From Gammaproteobacteria bacterium (GTDB lineage Bacteria > Pseudomonadota > Gammaproteobacteria > JACCYU01): a stretch of 64,000 bases of DNA. The stretch is taken from NCBI GenBank assembly GCA_013695765.1, contig JACCZW010000097.1:402-64401 (forward strand), read 5' to 3'. The position numbers and the translations under genes were made by a program. Below are positions 7,850-36,945 of the stretch, one piece after another. How positions within the stretch are numbered: position 1 is the stretch's first letter; the number at the start of each line of letters is the position of its first letter. Under the pieces are notes generated by a model, which worked only from the letters and a program-made list of their open reading frames with translations, did not search any database and was not told the origin of the DNA.

Positions 7850-8773
7850 TTAAGCGGCTGGCTGTTTGTCCGGGTGCAGGTAAACCAGACTCTTGCCCAG
7901 CTTGCCGCCATAGTTGCCGGCCGAAATCATGTTCAAGCCCGGCGTGTCTGCCGCAGCCTTGATCGCAGCCTGCGTGGCATCGATGATCGCCTGCAGATCC
8001 TTGCCGTTCATGATGATCTCCATCACCGACTTGACACCGTCCGGCAGACCCGCTTCCACATCCGGATGATCCTGCAAGGTCGGGCAGAATTTGGTGAACG
8101 TGCTGGCGATGGCGAACTTGTACTTGCTGCCGGCGGTCGAGCCCGAGCCGGCGACGCCGCCCGGAAACGGCATGATGACGCCGGGAACATCATGCACGGC
8201 TTGCACCCCGCGCTCGGCCCCTGCTAGCGCCGAATCCACGCTATCGCCAAACAGCCATAGATTGCCGCCCATCAGCCCGTCCGTGTAACCGAGCCTGCGA
8301 TCGATTATGAATTCCCCGCCGAGGATCGGGACTACCCATACCTTGCGGCCGTAACGCTCTTCGCGCGTTTGAAAGCCGTTGCCGAAATACGCGACCTTGC
8401 GACCCATGTGGTAGTAGGTGTCGGAGTCGACCAGATTGAAGCAGGCTGCGGTGGGCGCGGTCAGCACGTTTTGCGTGATGCGCGCAAGCGCGGCTTTTTC
8501 CAGCGCCTCGACCCGGTCTTTGCGAAAGCGCGGCAGGTGCATCTGCACCACGGCACCGGGGCGGCCATCGGGCGTTTGAAAAGACTCATCACCGCCGGGG
8601 CCAACGTAGCGATCGAGACCGGCTTCGCAATCGCACATGATAGTGCTGGAACCGTGCCCGGTCGCCGCGTTGACCGCGTGCTCCAGCCAGGTGCGATCGC
8701 GCGCGGTGATCAGCATTTCGACGTAGATGCTCTTGAATGCCTCGGCATAGGTATCATCGATTCTCGCGGCCAA
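7850..8773 (-). CDS. Ftr-family formyltransferase (formylmethanofuran:H4MPT formyltransferase / FhcD-like)
   Basis: 307 aa. N-terminus IDDTYAEAF..MLITA and central TPDGRPGAVVQ...VLTAPT match Ftr/FhcD family members as recalled from memory. No fhcABC partners are in the window. Confidence 0.65.
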   Translation of the reverse strand: MAARIDDTYAEAFKSIYVEMLITARDRTWLEHAVNAATGHGSSTIMCDCEAGLDRYVGPGGDESFQTPDGRPGAVVQMHLPRFRKDRVEALEKAALARITQNVLTAPTAACFNLVDSDTYYHMGRKVAYFGNGFQTREERYGRKVWVVPILGGEFIIDRRLGYTDGLMGGNLWLFGDSVDSALAGAERGVQAVHDVPGVIMPFPGGVAGSGSTAGSKYKFAIASTFTKFCPTLQDHPDVEAGLPDGVKSVMEIIMNGKDLQAIIDATQAAIKAAADTPGLNMISAGNYGGKLGKSLVYLHPDKQPAA

Positions 8774-8775
8774 AA

Positions 8776-9405
8776 TCAGTCTCTCCCTTTGCCTTCGTAA
8801 ATGTCTTTCTCGGTTATGACCTTGTCCATGAAAATGTCATGGGGACCGACCAGAATTTCAGGGAACATCTGCGACTCGAAACAAAGTGCTATCAGCGGCG
8901 CGTCCGGGCGCGCACTCTCCAGCAGTCGATCGTAATAGCCTTGGCCGTTGCCCATGCGCCCGCCACGACGATCGAAACCGACACCCGGCACCATCACTAG
9001 ATCCAGCGCCTCGGGCTCGACCTCCTTGCCTTTCTCGCCCCAACGATCCTTGGGCGGCTCCAGGATTTTCCATTTGCCGACCACGAGTTCGTCCATGCTC
9101 TCCAGGAGCCACAAACCCAGCTTGTTTTCACCTTCCTCGTCCACTGTGCAATAAGGGACGACAATCTTTTTGTCGCTGTTGACGGCATCGCCGATCACGT
9201 GGCGCGTGCGCACCTCGGAGCGCACGTCCAGATACCACATCACGGTTTGGGCCGCGGCGTACTCGGGCAGGTTTACGAATTTATCGACGATGGTTTTGGA
9301 CAGCTCGTCCTTGTTTTCCTGCTCGTTGCGCGCGTCGTACGCCTCGCGGCGCATCTTTCCCTTGCGCTCCATCAACGCGTCCAGTTCTTGCTGGCTCAGA
9401 CTCAT
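8776..9405 (-). CDS. 5-formyltetrahydrofolate cyclo-ligase family protein (MTHFS/YgfA-like)
   Basis: GRMGNGQGYYDR motif and overall MTHFS-like layout. Start placed at the internal ATG (9405) preceded by GGAG, rather than the ORF-track start at 9492. Confidence 0.75.
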   Translation of the reverse strand: MSLSQQELDALMERKGKMRREAYDARNEQENKDELSKTIVDKFVNLPEYAAAQTVMWYLDVRSEVRTRHVIGDAVNSDKKIVVPYCTVDEEGENKLGLWLLESMDELVVGKWKILEPPKDRWGEKGKEVEPEALDLVMVPGVGFDRRGGRMGNGQGYYDRLLESARPDAPLIALCFESQMFPEILVGPHDIFMDKVITEKDIYEGKGRD

Positions 9406-9527
9406 GTGGCGGACTCCTCGATTAGGATGCGATGTTCCGCTGGTGATTAATGGGAATATAAGCTGGAACATGCAGCAAAATTCAAACCACAATGCAGCAA
9501 ACGAGCCAGTTTCTTTTCTAATGGGGG

Positions 9528-9780
9528 CGTTCGCGGATGTTTAAGCGGACACGATGAAGGTCAAAACCCATCCGTCGGGTGCGGATATCTAACCACAATG
9601 CGAGCATGGAAAGCCGCGGTTGCGGATTATGCCGAGCCGATGCGTTTGATCTCGACACACACGCCGCAAGGCGAGCGCCGGAATCCCGGGATGTTATGTA
9701 GAACCGCACGTGACAGATGTTTCAACCGCGAGACGGTTGCCTGTCGCATATCGACTCCGCGGAGCAGCAACGCTCCAAGG
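9528..9780 (+). ncRNA. ssrS: probable 6S RNA (SsrS)
   Basis: The plus strand reads GCGGAUAUCUAACCACAAUGCGAGCAUGGAAAGCCGCGGUUGCGGAUUAUGCCGAGCCGAUGCG...CUCGACACACACGCC. This resembles E. coli 6S RNA (GCCGAUAUUUCAUACCACAAGAAUGUGG..CCGCGGUUGGUGAGCAUGCUCGG...GCGACGACACAUUCACC) as recalled from memory. A 5' GAUGUUUAAGCGG matches E. coli GAUGUUCGCAAGCGG. A GGAGCagcaacGCTCC hairpin (9761-9776) and a T-run (9808-9814) follow. It sits beside the ygfA-type 5-FCL gene. Ends are approximate. Confidence 0.5.
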
Positions 9781-9950
9781 GCTGGTTTCCTGCCTGAGTT
9801 CGGGCTATTTTTTTGAGCGAAGATGACCACCGTGGTCGTCGTCCTCATCGCGGACGGCTGCCGCACTTGTCGGCTAATCTGAGGCCGCGCCTGTTATGCA
9901 CTTTGGGGAAGTCGCGCAAAGCAACGCCTGCGTGTAAGTGTATCGAGCCT

Positions 9951-10523
9951 TTACTTGTCCTTGCTTTTTTTTTCTTCTTCGCCATCTTCTTCTTTCTCGG
10001 GATCAACGTCCGCTGAGTCCTCCCGGGTTTCCTCGGCGTGACGGGTCAGCCACTGGAATAGACCCAGGCCGATTAACGCGAACACCGCCACCGCCAGCAG
10101 CGCGGCGGGATAGAACAGCAGGTAAGGTTCGTCCTTGTTCTGAAACACGATGACCAGCGCCTCCAGGCTCACCGCGATGATGATGATGGTGAAGAACATG
10201 GTCAGCGAGCGGCGCGCTTCGGAAATTCTGGCCAGTTCCCGCTCCTTGACCACCTGTTCTTCGAGCAGAAACTTGGCGACATCGAAGACCGCGAAGGCGA
10301 TGATAATGAGACCGACGCTGTCCAGCAGTTGGGCGAGAAACGGCTTGCCCGCCCATACCTCGCCGGTCATGGCCCAGATCGCCGAGCCGACCATGGCGAG
10401 CGCCAGCAATTGCAGTGCGAAGGCCGCGACGATGTACAGCGCCTTCGATCCCAGATTGAAAATCCGGAGCTCCCACGACAGGGGTTGTTCGTCGTCTTTA
10501 TCCCGCTTTTCGCTCATGGTCAT
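9951..10523 (-). CDS. hypothetical polytopic membrane protein (about 4 TM, acidic Lys/Glu/Asp-rich C-terminus)
   Basis: 190 aa ORF starting 6 nt downstream of the AI-2E gene stop. Hydrophobic segments; no recognisable family. Confidence 0.5.
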   Translation of the reverse strand: MTMSEKRDKDDEQPLSWELRIFNLGSKALYIVAAFALQLLALAMVGSAIWAMTGEVWAGKPFLAQLLDSVGLIIIAFAVFDVAKFLLEEQVVKERELARISEARRSLTMFFTIIIIAVSLEALVIVFQNKDEPYLLFYPAALLAVAVFALIGLGLFQWLTRHAEETREDSADVDPEKEEDGEEEKKSKDK

Positions 10524-10529
10524 CTCAGT

Positions 10530-12443
10530 TCATGTGTTGCGATCAATGACCGCGACGCGTTCGTTCATGCGTTGCCGCGCCCACTTGACACCCGCCGCCA
10601 GGTTCGCCAACACCGCGTCGGCGCCGGCCTCGTTAAGCCTTGGGGCTACGCGGGCGGCATACACGGGATTATTCCATACGCCCACCGCAACCCTGGCTTT
10701 CGGAAATTGCTGCTTTAGCCGTTTGCAGAGATACCGCGTGTGCGCAAGCGCCTTCGGCGGCAGGGCGGAGACGCACACCACAGGCTGCTCGCTCTCACCA
10801 ACGCGCTTCACCATCTCGCTCGCCAGACTCTTGATGGACAGGTGCTGAGCACCGATGCCCTGCACCTTCAGCACCTGCGCGAACATGCGCGCCGTCAGTT
10901 CATCGGCCAGATCGCGCGACGGCAGACACATCAGTTCGAAAGCCTGATGATGCGGCTCGATGGCCCTGCCGTTCGCGGCGATGCTGTCCTGCGTGCCGAG
11001 GGCATCGACGATCTCACTCGCGCTCTCGATTATGGATTGCTCCAACTCCGGCTCCAGGTGCCCGTCGTGACGATCGCGCTCCGCCAGTGCGAGGGCCGGA
11101 ATGATGACCTGATCGTAGACGCTCATGAGACCGTCGCCGGAGTGCTCCCGTGCGAGTTGCATGGCGCCCTCGTGATCGCCCGCCAGCAGGCGCTGATAAA
11201 AGCGTTCGGTAGCCGACAAGGCGGGTTCCTTGCCCAGCAGAATGGTAAAAAACTCGAACTGCGGCAGATGCCGGCCTGCGACCACCAGGCACACGGTGAG
11301 CGGAATGGCCAGCAGCAGCCCCACCCCGCCCCAAAGGGAACTCCAGAAGATTACCGCCAGCAGCACCGCCACGGGCGAGAGACCGGTGCTCGCGCCGTAC
11401 AGCCACGGTTCCATAACCATATTGGTGAATGATTCCAGGACGATAAACAGCGCCACCACCGCCGCCGGCAAGATCCAGCCATCGAATACCGCCAGTGACA
11501 ACAGGATGGGCATGGATGCCGCCAGCCAGGGGCCGACGTAAGGGATGAAACGCAGCAACATTCCCAGCAGCCCCCACAGCAGCGCGCCGGGCAAGCCTAT
11601 GATTGCCAGGCCAATCGCAATCGGCACGCCGTAACACGTGTTGATCAGCAGTTGTGTCCGCAGATAGCGGCCAATACGGTCGCCCGCGTCGTTCAGGGCA
11701 CGGGTGGTCACGTCCAGGCGGTCGCGACTCATGAGCCGGATCAGGCGGTCGCGCAAATCCTCGCGCTGCAACAGGAAGAAAATGACCAGCACCACAGCCA
11801 GCCCCAGCCGCGCCAACGGGATCAACGCCGGAGAAACATAGTCCCTGAGAAGTTCGAAGGTCGACGGGGACTCTTCCAGCATCTCGACCAGGACTGGCGC
11901 CCGCGACTGATCGGTTAATGGCTCGTCGCCTTGAAGTCCGCGCGCCCCTTGTGGCTCCGCGACGTCCGGTTCTGCCGCGGATGGTTTCTTTCTAATGTCC
12001 TCCCTAATCGCGAAGAAAGTCTCCGCCGCCCGCTCGAAGACACCACCCTCGCCGCCCTGCAGGCTCAAGAATCGTTGCGTAATATTATCCTGGTATTTGG
12101 GCAGAGATTCCGCAAGGCTGACGACCTGGTTGGACACCATCAGGCCGACTAACCCAAGGATCGAAAAAGCAAAGATGACAGTCGCAATGACGCTGGGTAC
12201 CGGCGGCAGGCGCCAGCGCTCCAGGCGATCGGCCGCCGGCGCGAGCACGAAGCTCAGCAGCACCGCCAGCGCGATCGGGATCAACACGTCCTGCCCCAGA
12301 TAAAGCCCGGCGATGACCATCAGCCCCAGACCGAACCGTATCAGCGGTAGCGCGGCATCGGGCTGTGACTGTTTTGGCATGGCGCGCGGCGGATGCGGGT
12401 TCAGCGACGAAGCTGGAACGCCAGACCGCAATGGCGCCAGCAA
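10530..12443 (-). CDS. AI-2E family transporter (PerM/UPF0118-like) fused to a C-terminal B12-binding-like (CarH/MerR-type) two-domain module
   Basis: 637 aa. Residues about 20-400 form a typical AI-2E permease core. The C-terminal 230 aa align from memory with the CarH B12-binding helical bundle (ERFYQRLLAGDHEGAMQL..YDQVIIPALALAERD) plus a Rossmann-like half ending VAVGVWNN. The canonical His of ExHxxG is replaced (SRDLADEL). Confidence 0.7.
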   Translation of the reverse strand: MLAPLRSGVPASSLNPHPPRAMPKQSQPDAALPLIRFGLGLMVIAGLYLGQDVLIPIALAVLLSFVLAPAADRLERWRLPPVPSVIATVIFAFSILGLVGLMVSNQVVSLAESLPKYQDNITQRFLSLQGGEGGVFERAAETFFAIREDIRKKPSAAEPDVAEPQGARGLQGDEPLTDQSRAPVLVEMLEESPSTFELLRDYVSPALIPLARLGLAVVLVIFFLLQREDLRDRLIRLMSRDRLDVTTRALNDAGDRIGRYLRTQLLINTCYGVPIAIGLAIIGLPGALLWGLLGMLLRFIPYVGPWLAASMPILLSLAVFDGWILPAAVVALFIVLESFTNMVMEPWLYGASTGLSPVAVLLAVIFWSSLWGGVGLLLAIPLTVCLVVAGRHLPQFEFFTILLGKEPALSATERFYQRLLAGDHEGAMQLAREHSGDGLMSVYDQVIIPALALAERDRHDGHLEPELEQSIIESASEIVDALGTQDSIAANGRAIEPHHQAFELMCLPSRDLADELTARMFAQVLKVQGIGAQHLSIKSLASEMVKRVGESEQPVVCVSALPPKALAHTRYLCKRLKQQFPKARVAVGVWNNPVYAARVAPRLNEAGADAVLANLAAGVKWARQRMNERVAVIDRNT

Positions 12444-12560: not shown

Positions 12561-14267
12561 TCAGCCTTCATCGGTGATCGCACCGCGCGAGGCGGAGCTG
12601 ACCTGACGGGCATACTTCGCCAGCACCCCGCGCGAGTATCGCGCCTTAGGTGGTTTCCAGGACGCCAGACGCGCGGCGATTTCCTCTTTCGTAAGCTCCA
12701 GATTGATCTGGCGTTTGTCAGCGTCGATGGTGATCGCATCGCCGTTTTTCACGATCGCGAGAGGACCGCCTTCCGCGGCTTCGGGCGTGATATGGCCGAC
12801 CACGAACCCGTGACTGCCGCCCGAGAAGCGTCCATCGGTAATGAGCGCCACATCTTTGCCCAAACCCTTGCCCATCACCGCAGAGGTCGGCGCCAGCATC
12901 TCGCGCATGCCAGGCCCGCCTCTGGGTCCTTCGTAACGGATGACCAGCACATCGCCCTTGACTACCGTGCCATCGAGTATCCGCTTAAGGGCTTCTTCTT
13001 CCGAGCCGAACACGCGCGCCTTGCCGGTAAACTGCACGCCCTCCTTGCCGGAGATCTTGGCGACCGCACCTTCGGGAGCCAGGTTGCCGTACATAATGAC
13101 CAGATGCCCGGTTTTTTTGATCGGGTCATCGAAGGCGCGCACAATCTCCTGTTTTTTGGGATAAGGCTTTACCTTTTTTAGATTCTGCGCAAGTGTCTTG
13201 CCGGTGACGGTAAGGCATTCGCCATGCAGCAGACCGCGGACAAGCAAATCTTTCATCAACGGCTGGATGCCGCCGATCGCGATCAGCTCCGACATCATGT
13301 AACGTCCGCTGGGCCGCAAATCCGCCAGCACCGGCACCTTTTTGCCGATGCGGGTGAATTCGTCGATCGAGAGCTTGACATCGGCAGCAAACGCCATCGC
13401 CAGCAGGTGCAGCACCGCGTTGGTGGAGCCGCCCAGCGCGGTGATGACCACGATGGCGTTCCTGAACGCCTTTTTGGTCATGATGTCGCGTGGGCGAATA
13501 TTCTTTTGAATTAACGCCATGACCGCGCCGCCAGCCTCGAAGCTGTCGCGAGCCTTTTCCTCCGATAACGCGCGCTGCGCTGAGCTGCCGGGCAGACTCA
13601 TGCCCAGCGCCTCGATCGCCGAGGCCATGGTGTTGGCCGTAAACATGCCGCCGCACGCGCCGGCGCCGGGGATGGCGCAACTTTCCACCGCGTGCAACTG
13701 TCTGGCCGTCATGCCGCCGCCGGCCTGCGCGCCGACAGCCTCGAACACCGATACGATGTCCAGGTTCCTGTCGTCCAGACGGCCAGGGCTAATGGTGCCG
13801 CCGTACACGAACACGGCGGGTCGGTTCAGCCGCGCCAGCGCCATGAGACAGCCCGGCATGTTCTTGTCGCAGCCGCCGATTGCCACCACGCCATCGAAAC
13901 CCTCGCAGGCGGTCACGGTTTCTATCGAATCCGCGATCACTTCGCGCGACACCAGCGAATATTTCATGCCCTCGGTGCCCATTGAAATGCCATCGGAAAT
14001 GGTGATGGTGTTGAAGATGATTGCTTTCGCTTTAGCCGCATCGGCGCCCGCGGCGGCCTCGCGCGCCAGCTTGTCGATGTGCATGTTGCAGGGCGTGACC
14101 ATGCTCCAGGTCGAGGCGATGCCGATCTGCGGCTTGCGGAAATCCTTGTCCTCGAAGCCGACTGCGCGCAGCATGGCGCGGCTGGGCGCGCGCTCGATTC
14201 CATCGACCATTTGCGCGGAAAACGGCCGTGGATTTTTGGTGCTTTTGGAGGCGGTGCGTTTGGCCAT
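12561..14267 (-). CDS. ilvD: dihydroxy-acid dehydratase
   Basis: 568 aa with ILVD/EDD signatures ([28 protein letters not shown]). Confidence 0.9.
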
Positions 14268-14281
14268 TCAAGATCGCCCTG

Positions 14282-15283
14282 TTAATGATATTGCCTGATG
14301 ATATGCGGATGCGCCGCATCGCCGCCGTTCAACCGCGGGCAGTGACTCGGTGACGGCCCGGCAGCGGTGGCAGCCCGCACTTCTTCCAGCGTCGCCCGAA
14401 AATCGGGGTTGCTATCCGAATCCACGGCGACGGCGCGTCTGGCCGCCGTCAGTGCCTGCCTGTCGCAACCAAGCTCGGACAGGCTGATGGCGAGATTGTT
14501 ATGCGCGGCGGCCGAATCCGGCGCCAGGGCGGTAGCAATCGCGAATGCACGCGCCGCGCCGCCCGCATCGTCCAGCGCGTAACGCGCATTACCCAGACCC
14601 ATGCGTATTAAAGCGTTGTGCGGCCAGTGACCGGCCGCCGCCCGATAGGCTTCGCGCGCCGCCCGCGGATGTCCGGTCTCCTCCAGCGCGGCCGCCGCCT
14701 CGAGGTAGCGCAGCGCATTATTGCCGTGCGGCATATGGTCCGGGGGCAACGGCGCAAACGCCCAGTAATCGCCGCGCGCCCAGGTGCGCTCGAAGACGCT
14801 TAAGGCCAGCCGGTAATTTCGACTTGCACCGGAATGCAGAATGAGTTCGCCGGTGTTCAGATCGTAGCCAATGGCGACCGCATAATGCCACCGCAGGTAC
14901 CAGTTGACGCCAAGGTTCTGCAACACCACCACGGGATGTTGCGCCGCAATCTCCGCGAGCAGATGTTGAAGATCGGGCGCCAGCACATAGGCGAGCAGCC
15001 CCTGCCCGCGGGTGGCGGCCAGCATTTCTGCCTGCAGGCTGCCCTGGAGTCCGGGGACGTACACGGCCCGCGCCAGCGCCGACTGCGTAACCTCGACCCC
15101 GTAGTATTTCATGGTCATGGCCAAGGCCGCCGGGCCACAGTAAAACGCCTGCTGCGCAAAGAAAGGGACATCCTCGATGAGAGTTTTTGCGGGCAGGGTA
15201 TCCGGCAGGGATTGCATCAGGCCACGGGTTTGCGAAGGTGCGCAGCCATGTACGAGCAGTGTCACCATCGCGCACAGGAGCAT
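14282..15283 (-). CDS. PA2778-family periplasmic cysteine peptidase lipoprotein with C-terminal TPR repeats
   Basis: Lipobox LLVHGC. N-terminal papain/C39-like domain (FYCGPAALAMTMKYYG ... WHYAVAIGYD). TPR-like C-terminus. Confidence 0.6.
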   Translation of the reverse strand: MLLCAMVTLLVHGCAPSQTRGLMQSLPDTLPAKTLIEDVPFFAQQAFYCGPAALAMTMKYYGVEVTQSALARAVYVPGLQGSLQAEMLAATRGQGLLAYVLAPDLQHLLAEIAAQHPVVVLQNLGVNWYLRWHYAVAIGYDLNTGELILHSGASRNYRLALSVFERTWARGDYWAFAPLPPDHMPHGNNALRYLEAAAALEETGHPRAAREAYRAAAGHWPHNALIRMGLGNARYALDDAGGAARAFAIATALAPDSAAAHNNLAISLSELGCDRQALTAARRAVAVDSDSNPDFRATLEEVRAATAAGPSPSHCPRLNGGDAAHPHIIRQYH

Positions 15284-36704: not shown

Positions 36705-36844
36705 GCGTGTTCTAAGTTATCGCGCCAGGTTATCGCGCCGGGCGCTAAGATTACGGACACCCGTGGCCGCAGACAAGTCCGAAGGCGCGCGCCGCTGCCG
36801 CCCGCGGTTGCAAAGCACGAGTTTTTTCTATAAGTTCAGTAGCA

Positions 36845-36925
36845 TCGAGACTAGGGGTGCCCGCCAGCGGGCTGAGAAATACCCTTGGAACCTGAATCGG
36901 CTCGTACCGGCGGAGGGAAGGCTCG
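36845..36925 (+). promoter_or_regulatory. TPP (THI-box) riboswitch in the thiC leader
   Basis: CUAGGGGUGCCC..GCUGAGAAAUACCCUUGGAACCUGAAUCGGCUCGUACCGGCGGAGGGAAGGC matches the THI element consensus. thiC starts about 70 nt downstream. Confidence 0.85.
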
Positions 36926-36945
36926 TGAAAATTGCTCGTGAATAA

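Follow-up and report, generated by a model that had tools for sequence, protein, structure and literature searches.

Here we analyzed the gene of an AI-2E family transporter that is located on the reverse strand of a 64,000-nucleotide stretch of DNA from a gammaproteobacterium (contig JACCZW010000097.1 of assembly GCA_013695765.1; the whole stretch is referred to below as the window), together with the small membrane protein gene that follows it. The large gene encodes a real AI-2E family membrane transporter that carries about 240 soluble residues at its C-terminus. These residues adopt a diverged B12-binding fold in which the cobalt-ligating His is replaced by an Asp, and this Asp is essentially invariant in a very large family of similar fusions. 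We consider it probable, at roughly 60%, that the protein is a secondary transporter with a cytoplasmic regulatory or sensor module, derived from the B12 fold, whose rebuilt cleft controls the transport domain. An earlier interpretation of the same DNA, made without database searches (the sequence-only reading), had proposed a light- or cobalamin-gated transporter or a transporter of a corrinoid-related substrate. Our results bear out the fusion and the fold that it described, and do not support a CarH-like light gate or a corrinoid substrate.

An AI-2E transporter with a soluble B12-fold module

The gene is a single open reading frame (ORF, 10530-12443) that runs through both halves of the protein, and neither a stop codon nor a frameshift separates them. 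The same architecture was found in more than 100 full-length homologs at 40-90% identity. The fusion of a transporter to an extra C-terminal region, as claimed by the sequence-only reading, is therefore not an artefact. The true start codon is most likely the ATG at 12380, which gives a protein of 616 residues; an entirely identical protein (P0001; MBA2410088.1, "AI-2E family transporter", 616 aa), from a gammaproteobacterial metagenome-assembled genome (MAG), begins at this ATG. Residue numbers for the transporter nevertheless refer throughout to the 637-residue version that begins at the upstream TTG.

The N-terminal part of the protein matches the Pfam family AI-2E_transport (PF01594) over residues ~30-389 (E=5.6e-48, 164.2 bits against a cutoff of 34.3). 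It also matches TqsA (7nb6_A) at the level of sequence (phmmer, E=2.5e-23) and of structure (Foldseek, E=1e-10, with a template-modelling (TM) score of 0.77 normalised to TqsA). We assign the protein to the AI-2E family (PF01594; TC 2.A.86), and transport is its predicted function. AI-2E_transport is all that Pfam detects N-terminal of the B12-fold module; there is no DNA-binding domain of the MerR type. A hydrophilic insertion in the membrane domain (around residues 153-180) is disordered, and it is only at residues 132-159 of the 616-residue AlphaFold model that the predicted local distance difference test (pLDDT) is low. The hydrophobic segments end by about residue 388, and since none follow, the tail is soluble.

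Two Pfam families match this tail in the order expected along the sequence, although both score below their thresholds: B12-binding_2 (PF02607; E=0.018, 15.7 bits against a cutoff of 23) and B12-binding (PF02310; E=2e-5, 24.8 bits against a cutoff of 32.1). Relatives, however, do exceed these cutoffs, both for PF02310 (P0051 with 43.8 bits and P0056 with 37.7 bits) and for PF02607 (P0166 with 24.8 bits), and on these grounds we regard homology to the B12 fold as secure and the domain as diverged. Structure prediction leads to the same fold. The AlphaFold model of the module alone (pLDDT 93.8, predicted TM score 0.90) consists of a helical bundle followed by five beta-alpha units, and the top 50 matches listed by Foldseek in the PDB are all two-subdomain B12-binding modules (probability 1.00, TM 0.60-0.66). 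They include MtmC, the SCHIC domain of AppA (4hh3_C with E=1.5e-6 and TM 0.65; 4hh0 and 4heh also match), photocobilins, CtMerR, TtCarH, AerR and MetH. At the sequence level a profile was needed, as a single-sequence phmmer search of the C-terminal 237 residues against PDB sequences returned only noise. The profile of the module matched the cobalamin-binding domain (CBD) of CtMerR (8jbs) with an hhalign probability of 93.6% (E=2e-7; hmmsearch E=0.004), and CarH-type CBDs were its best sequence-profile match in the PDB. Thus, profile searches and structure prediction both returned the helical bundle and Rossmann-like B12-binding module that had been recognised by eye, and not an unrelated fold. 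We also considered a CheY-like receiver for the flavodoxin-like half and rejected it: the listed fold matches are all two-subdomain B12 modules, and by inspection the positions of the receiver Asp, Thr and Lys do not match.

Residue register and conservation of the cofactor site

The residue register was derived from hmmsearch and hhalign alignments to the CtMerR CBD (8jbs), and the two are in agreement. In both, Asp514 is aligned with the His of the DxHxxG motif that ligates the cobalt as lower-axial ligand, and in the model this residue belongs to the first turn of the helix that succeeds strand 1, where canonical domains have the His. The sequence-only reading was right that this His is lacking, and the motif that it quoted in its place, SRDLADEL, corresponds to residues 509-516. 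The Gly of DxHxxG is a Thr in the window protein (position 517) and Ala or Val across the family. The SxL motif after strand 3 is retained as S559-A-L561, whereas the GG motif after strand 4 has become G588-V589-W590, an equivalence based on secondary-structure position and on the known arrangement of MetH, not on a residue-level alignment. Judged from the sequence, two of the three classic His-on motifs (His and GG) are broken and the third, SxL, is kept.

The module lacks the published light signature, GxxW / EH / GxxH / GxxxP (PMC11796333), in all four of its elements. Arg458 aligns with the Trp of the GxxW (Wx9EH) signature, Glu468-Gln469 with the EH pair and Ser536...Leu540 with GxxxP, and Asp514 occupies the place of the signature His. 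The residue following the signature Trp aligns with His459, which corresponds to TtCarH His132 by motif equivalence and according to PMC4557120.

The replacement of the His had been taken for a peculiarity of this one gene; instead, it is fixed in a very large family. Asp is found at the His position in all 116 closest full-length homologs, in 80/80 loci from species-representative genomes (37-53% identity) and in 143 of the 144 representatives taken at the 50%-identity cluster level, the remaining one having Glu. Among these 144 representatives several other residues are near-invariant: Tyr416 (140/144), Arg418 (142/144), Pro562 (141/144), Pro563 (144/144) and Trp590 (142/144), the last within a family consensus G-L-W (G-[LV]-W) at the GG position. 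On the cap, Y416-Q417-R418 and E455 are near-invariant as well. Ser559 is present in 133/144, with Leu, Val or Met at position 561, and Trp at position 458 in just 4/144. His459 is less constant, being found in 104/116 close homologs, 95/144 representatives and 36/80 distant genomes, and replaced otherwise by Arg or Gln.

In an exhaustive profile search, 5,624 representative clusters matched the module with E<=1e-3, of which 1,564 reached E<=1e-30. Nearly all of the top 150 are proteins of 600-690 aa with the module at ~360-620, which corresponds to the same AI-2E fusion, and shorter matches resemble gene fragments; the module is found essentially only on AI-2E proteins. A genome scan by full-length alignment detected the fusion in at least 567 species. 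Carriers among the matches listed include Planctomycetota, Verrucomicrobiota, Acidobacteriota, Chloroflexota and Burkholderiales, and cultured carriers are Microvirga, Rhizobium, Ensifer, Mesorhizobium, Azospirillum and Allohahella, and also Modicisalibacter muralis with the protein WP_175488707.1. Hence, the survey of AI-2E proteins that had been suggested shows a widespread fusion with an essentially invariant Asp.

In 25 of the 80 loci the module is followed by 160-230 extra residues. Some of the relatives have a GAF domain behind the module (L019, L020, P0063, P0117, P0166, P0189, P0247 and P0308), others a SpoIIE/PP2C phosphatase domain (P0051 and P0056) or GAF plus SpoIIE (P0231 and P0299), and all tested variants with added C-terminal domains keep the Asp-type motif. 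The tail of one protein from a Thermoanaerobaculia MAG (L015, residues ~245-439) contains a second, tandem B12-binding module that scores above both thresholds (PF02310 54.7 bits, PF02607 37.2 bits). Inspection by eye gives EEEEEIG at the His position of this module, so that the His is apparently lacking there too. Larger AI-2E homologs with C-terminal "ATP/GTP-binding", GAF or TPR-like domains were reported by Rettner & Saier in 2010, as cited in PMC9475539. Going by that secondhand description, their "ATP/GTP-binding" domain may be the Rossmann-like half of the B12-fold module.

The small membrane protein gene and the genomic surroundings

The features of the transporter locus are collected in Table 1.

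Table 1. Position and supporting evidence of the features of the transporter locus (window coordinates)
Feature	Coordinates	Strand	Basis
AI-2E / B12-fold fusion ORF	10530..12443	-	637 aa from TTG at 12443; stop TGA 10530-10532
AI-2E (TqsA-like) membrane transport domain, residues ~30-392	11268..12356	-	Pfam PF01594, phmmer, Foldseek, hydropathy
Helical-bundle ("cap", B12-binding_2-like) half, residues ~411-491	10971..11213	-	PF02607 below threshold, model helices, profile register
Rossmann/flavodoxin-like (B12-binding-like) half, residues ~504-636, five beta-alpha units	10536..10934	-	PF02310 below threshold, model, Foldseek
Codon of Asp514, at the cobalt-ligating (lower-axial) His position of DxHxxG	10902..10904	-	hmmsearch, hhalign
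Small membrane protein gene, 190 aa (188 aa from ATG 10517)	9951..10523	-	four hydrophobic segments, acidic/lysine-rich tail

The sequence-only reading had described a small protein with four transmembrane segments, encoded 6 nt downstream and co-transcribed with the transporter gene. Hydropathy and spacing agree with the first part of this description: the protein has four hydrophobic segments, and its ORF begins 6 nt after the transporter stop (TGA-ACTGAG-ATG), or 12 nt after it when the second ATG is used, as in the NCBI homolog of 188 aa (P0121). Co-transcription of the two genes in this organism is plausible, because the gap is only 6-12 nt and no terminator lies in between; the counts obtained in a promoter and terminator scan equalled those expected from shuffled sequence. 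The pairing, on the other hand, is confined to a narrow clade. The small protein belongs to a family of 44 homolog clusters without a Pfam match, and its gene adjoins the fusion gene in close relatives only; a tblastn search with the small protein against the 80 distant loci gave no match. The genes of distant homologs follow trpD, adjoin SelR or are situated near an ankyrin-repeat gene. A functional partnership between the two proteins is therefore not supported, as the small gene is a narrow-clade neighbor that is reduced to a remnant or absent elsewhere and whose distant homologs are found in unrelated contexts.

The remnant consists of 17 residues (82% identical to residues 158-174 of the small protein) and lies just 3' of the transporter gene in a relative with 79% identity (L081 7893-7943, L082 2043-2093), which suggests that the small gene was lost recently in that relative. 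The lengths of the homologs of the small protein vary from 159 to 234 aa. In the window, the highly acidic and lysine-rich end of the small ORF is read from a purine-rich stretch with a run of nine A (gaagaagaaaaaaaaagc; 9951-10000, reverse strand), a potential slippage-prone site.

The other neighbors in the window are an ilvD-type dehydratase gene (12561-14267), a C39-like peptidase gene (14282-15283), a 5-formyl-tetrahydrofolate (THF) cyclo-ligase gene (8776-9492) and Ftr (7850-8773), all of them unrelated housekeeping or one-carbon (C1) metabolism genes. When every ORF at a distance of up to 4 kb from the transporter gene was included in a clustering across the 80 loci, no conserved neighbor emerged, B12-related or other. 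A conserved operon partner was rejected accordingly: no family occurs in more than 9 of the 80 loci, and the few found there look like unrelated large genes or spurious ORFs. An Rfam search detected no cobalamin riboswitch in the 64-kb window, which led us to discard control of the transporter by a B12 riboswitch as well. The corrinoid-related substrate that the sequence-only reading had envisaged, or a link to a corrinoid pathway, thus finds no support in the window or in the neighborhoods of the 80 genomes.

Some further observations concern the surroundings of the locus. The sole Rfam family detected in the window is a TPP (thiamine pyrophosphate) riboswitch at 36843-36935 on the forward strand (66.8 bits against a gathering score of 54.3). 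On the reverse strand (7850-9492) Ftr, a formylmethanofuran-tetrahydromethanopterin formyltransferase with both Pfam lobes, directly adjoins the 5-formyl-THF cyclo-ligase gene, a pair that points to a tetrahydromethanopterin-linked C1 pathway in this gammaproteobacterial MAG. Downstream of the transporter locus, two close relatives with 74-79% identity (L081 8352-12109 and L086 5949-9592) have a Haem_oxygenas_2/TENA-like gene and a large PAS-GGDEF-EAL gene, and in L086 these are followed by the 5-formyl-THF cyclo-ligase gene. Neither of the two genes is present in the window (9493-9950 was compared), which indicates an indel directly downstream of the transporter locus. The C39-like peptidase gene is found upstream of both ilvD and the transporter gene, in the window (14282-15283, reverse strand) as well as in L081 (3181-4176) and in L086 (1-431), and Pfam finds TPR repeats in the relatives. 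It directly adjoins ilvD in the window and in L081, whereas an acetyltransferase gene on the opposite strand lies between them in L086.

Possible ligands, rival explanations and known systems

The only paper that we found to touch on the combination of an AI-2E domain and a B12 fold is that of Yu et al. (FEBS J 2024; PMC11796333). These authors used HaAI-2E (WP_052573826), which consists of an AI-2E domain, a CBD and a diguanylate cyclase (DGC), as an example of a protein without the light signature. Its AlphaFold model left limited space for adenosylcobalamin (AdoCbl), and an Arg was reported at the position of His177. The CBD, which they termed light-independent, retained only hydroxocobalamin (OHCbl) when purified, and neither AdoCbl nor methylcobalamin (MeCbl); the protein had been purified on a His-trap column (PMC11796333). 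This last point matters for how the binding is read. Aquocobalamin readily coordinates free imidazole or His. Given the use of the His-trap column, the binding of OHCbl by HaAI-2E may therefore have been non-specific or adventitious.

In the reading that we favor, the cofactor cleft would have been rebuilt: Asp514 replaces the His and Trp590 the second Gly of the GG motif, the cap contributes Tyr416 and Arg418, and Pro562-Pro563 follow strand 3. TqsA has a cytoplasmic C-terminus and forms a pentamer, an elevator-like mechanism has been proposed for it, and its C-terminal half is the putative transport domain (PMC9475539). From this topology we infer that the module is cytoplasmic. It begins directly behind the terminal hairpin and helix of the transport domain, and for this reason the occupancy or conformation of the cleft most likely controls the movement of that domain and so gates transport. 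In relatives, the signal would be passed on to the GAF or PP2C phosphatase domains behind the module. The module cannot hold cobalamin in the canonical base-off/His-on manner, and AdoCbl binding is not expected. Its ligand would be neither AdoCbl nor MeCbl, and could be a corrinoid held in a non-canonical way or a non-corrinoid molecule. Three considerations speak against this reading: gating is deduced from the domain order only; the OHCbl binding of HaAI-2E shows some affinity for corrinoids, so that denying the module the status of a cobalamin domain could be too strong; and the conservation of the cleft residues would fit a purely structural latch between the subdomains equally well.

These considerations lead to the rival explanations. 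One of them, which seems rather unlikely to us, is that the module is a non-canonical corrinoid sensor that binds aquo- or hydroxocobalamin base-on via His459 as upper-axial ligand, as in AerR and light-state CarH, which use an upper-axial His (PMC4557120). What the transporter sensed would then be B12 in an oxidised or photolysed form and not AdoCbl itself. The position of His459, equivalent to that of TtCarH His132 above the cobalt, its presence in most close homologs and the appearance of AerR (7te2) among the fold matches are in line with this, and a need for an exchangeable upper ligand would explain why the HaAI-2E domain took up OHCbl and not AdoCbl or MeCbl. However, His459 gives way to Arg or Gln in many of the 144 representatives and in most of the distant genomes, and the truly invariant residues are others; the OHCbl binding is perhaps adventitious; and neither a B12 riboswitch nor B12-related neighbors were found in the window or the 80 loci, respectively. 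Alternatively, the module could be a degenerate, ligand-free B12 fold, closed by a salt bridge of the Arg418/Asp514 type, whose role under the pentamer would be structural or lie in oligomerisation or protein docking. The loss of the His, the change of Gly517 to Ala, Val or Thr and the change of GG to G-[LV]-W, which remove the space for the nucleotide tail, fit this view, as do the limited space in the HaAI-2E model (PMC11796333), the sub-threshold Pfam scores of the window protein and the example of AppA SCHIC, a top match that makes no use of B12 and works through protein-protein contacts (AppA-PpsR complex, 4hh3). We nonetheless hold it to be unlikely, as near-invariant polar and charged residues at the canonical cofactor-site loops, maintained over thousands of clusters, would rather be expected of a site for a ligand or for catalysis, the frequent GAF or PP2C domains downstream suggest a signalling chain, and some corrinoid binding has been reported for HaAI-2E.

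The two mechanisms proposed by the sequence-only reading fare worse. A CarH-like transporter gated by light or AdoCbl could invoke the common two-subdomain fold and the fact that CarH-type CBDs are the best profile match in the PDB. It is largely refuted, and we consider it highly improbable, since all four elements of the light signature are absent, the lower-axial His is an invariant Asp, CarH with the H177A substitution no longer binds AdoCbl (Kutta et al. 2015; PMC4557120), and the HaAI-2E domain is light-independent and bound neither AdoCbl nor MeCbl. The module is almost certainly not a light sensor or a CarH-type photoreceptor. That cobalamin or some corrinoid-related compound is the transported substrate, and that the module binds it or hands it off, is hardly credible: only the resemblance in fold and the in-vitro OHCbl binding of HaAI-2E point that way, whereas the window lacks a cobalamin riboswitch, the neighboring genes (ilvD, C39-like peptidase, 5-formyl-THF cyclo-ligase and Ftr) are of other kinds, no neighbor is conserved in the 80 genomes, and characterised AI-2E members handle small molecules or ions.

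Returning to the favored reading of a ligand-controlled transporter, we would tentatively extend it to the family as a whole, while acknowledging that this extension has well under even odds. The Asp-type module, marked by Asp514, Tyr416, Arg418, Pro-Pro563 and Trp590, might be a distinct and ancient class of ligand-sensing module that occurs almost only on AI-2E proteins and turns them into ligand-gated transporters or "transceptors" driving GAF, PP2C or diguanylate-cyclase outputs. The ligand might then be aquocobalamin, bound via an upper-axial His without a lower protein ligand, or a non-corrinoid molecule in a repurposed corrin cleft.

Proteins of this kind are already displayed in databases, through precomputed Pfam hits on many relatives, and one paper has sampled them. 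What our analysis adds is that the change from His to Asp is invariant across thousands of clusters, that the module is essentially restricted to AI-2E proteins and often stands between the transporter and signalling domains, and that the small membrane protein and any link to a B12 pathway are not part of the system. The AI-2E proteins are among the most widespread families of bacterial membrane proteins, with substrates and regulation that are largely uncharacterised, and thousands of them share the Asp-type module, in soil Planctomycetota, Verrucomicrobiota and Acidobacteriota as well as in cultured Rhizobium, Azospirillum, Microvirga and members of the Halomonas group. Knowing the ligand would help to explain in what way and to what end these transporters are controlled, and would also show how a B12 fold can be repurposed, as in AppA SCHIC. 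In the meantime, a Pfam "B12-binding" hit on one of these proteins should not be taken as a sign of cobalamin dependence or light sensing.

Compared with known systems, the window protein shares its membrane domain and, by homology, a cytoplasmic C-terminus with TqsA (7nb6), YdiK, PerM and YhhT of E. coli. These are proteins of ~340-350 aa that end in a short helix, whereas the window protein has the extra B12-fold module of ~240 aa, and its hydrophilic insertion between helices 3 and 4 is longer. HaAI-2E resembles it in having an AI-2E domain followed by a B12-fold domain without the cobalt-ligating His or the light signature, and differs in its additional C-terminal DGC (GGDEF) domain, as the window protein ends after the module. 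The reported Arg of HaAI-2E at the His177 position contrasts with the Asp of the window protein and of 339/340 relatives, which often carry an Arg at the preceding residue or at position 510; HaAI-2E is a presumed member of the Asp-type family.

The CBDs of CarH, CtMerR and photocobilin (5c8d, 8jbs and 8j2w) have the same architecture of a cap and a Rossmann-like half and share SxL with the window module, which differs from CarH-type proteins in lacking a MerR DNA-binding domain and GxxxP, and in having Asp for His, Arg for Trp and E-Q for EH. AerR/PpaA (7te2) is a B12-fold regulator in which an upper-axial His, at a position of the cap analogous to that of His459, ligates cobalamin. It is, however, a soluble protein that acts as anti-repressor partner of CrtJ/PpsR, and a lower-axial His has been proposed for it as well, whereas the window module has no lower His and its His459 is not invariant in the family. 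The SCHIC domain of AppA has been described as heme-binding and stands beside a BLUF domain in a soluble anti-repressor, while the module described here is tethered to a transporter. Still, as one of the top structural matches, AppA SCHIC offers the precedent of a sensor module with a B12 fold in which canonical cobalamin binding was lost and which acts in regulation.

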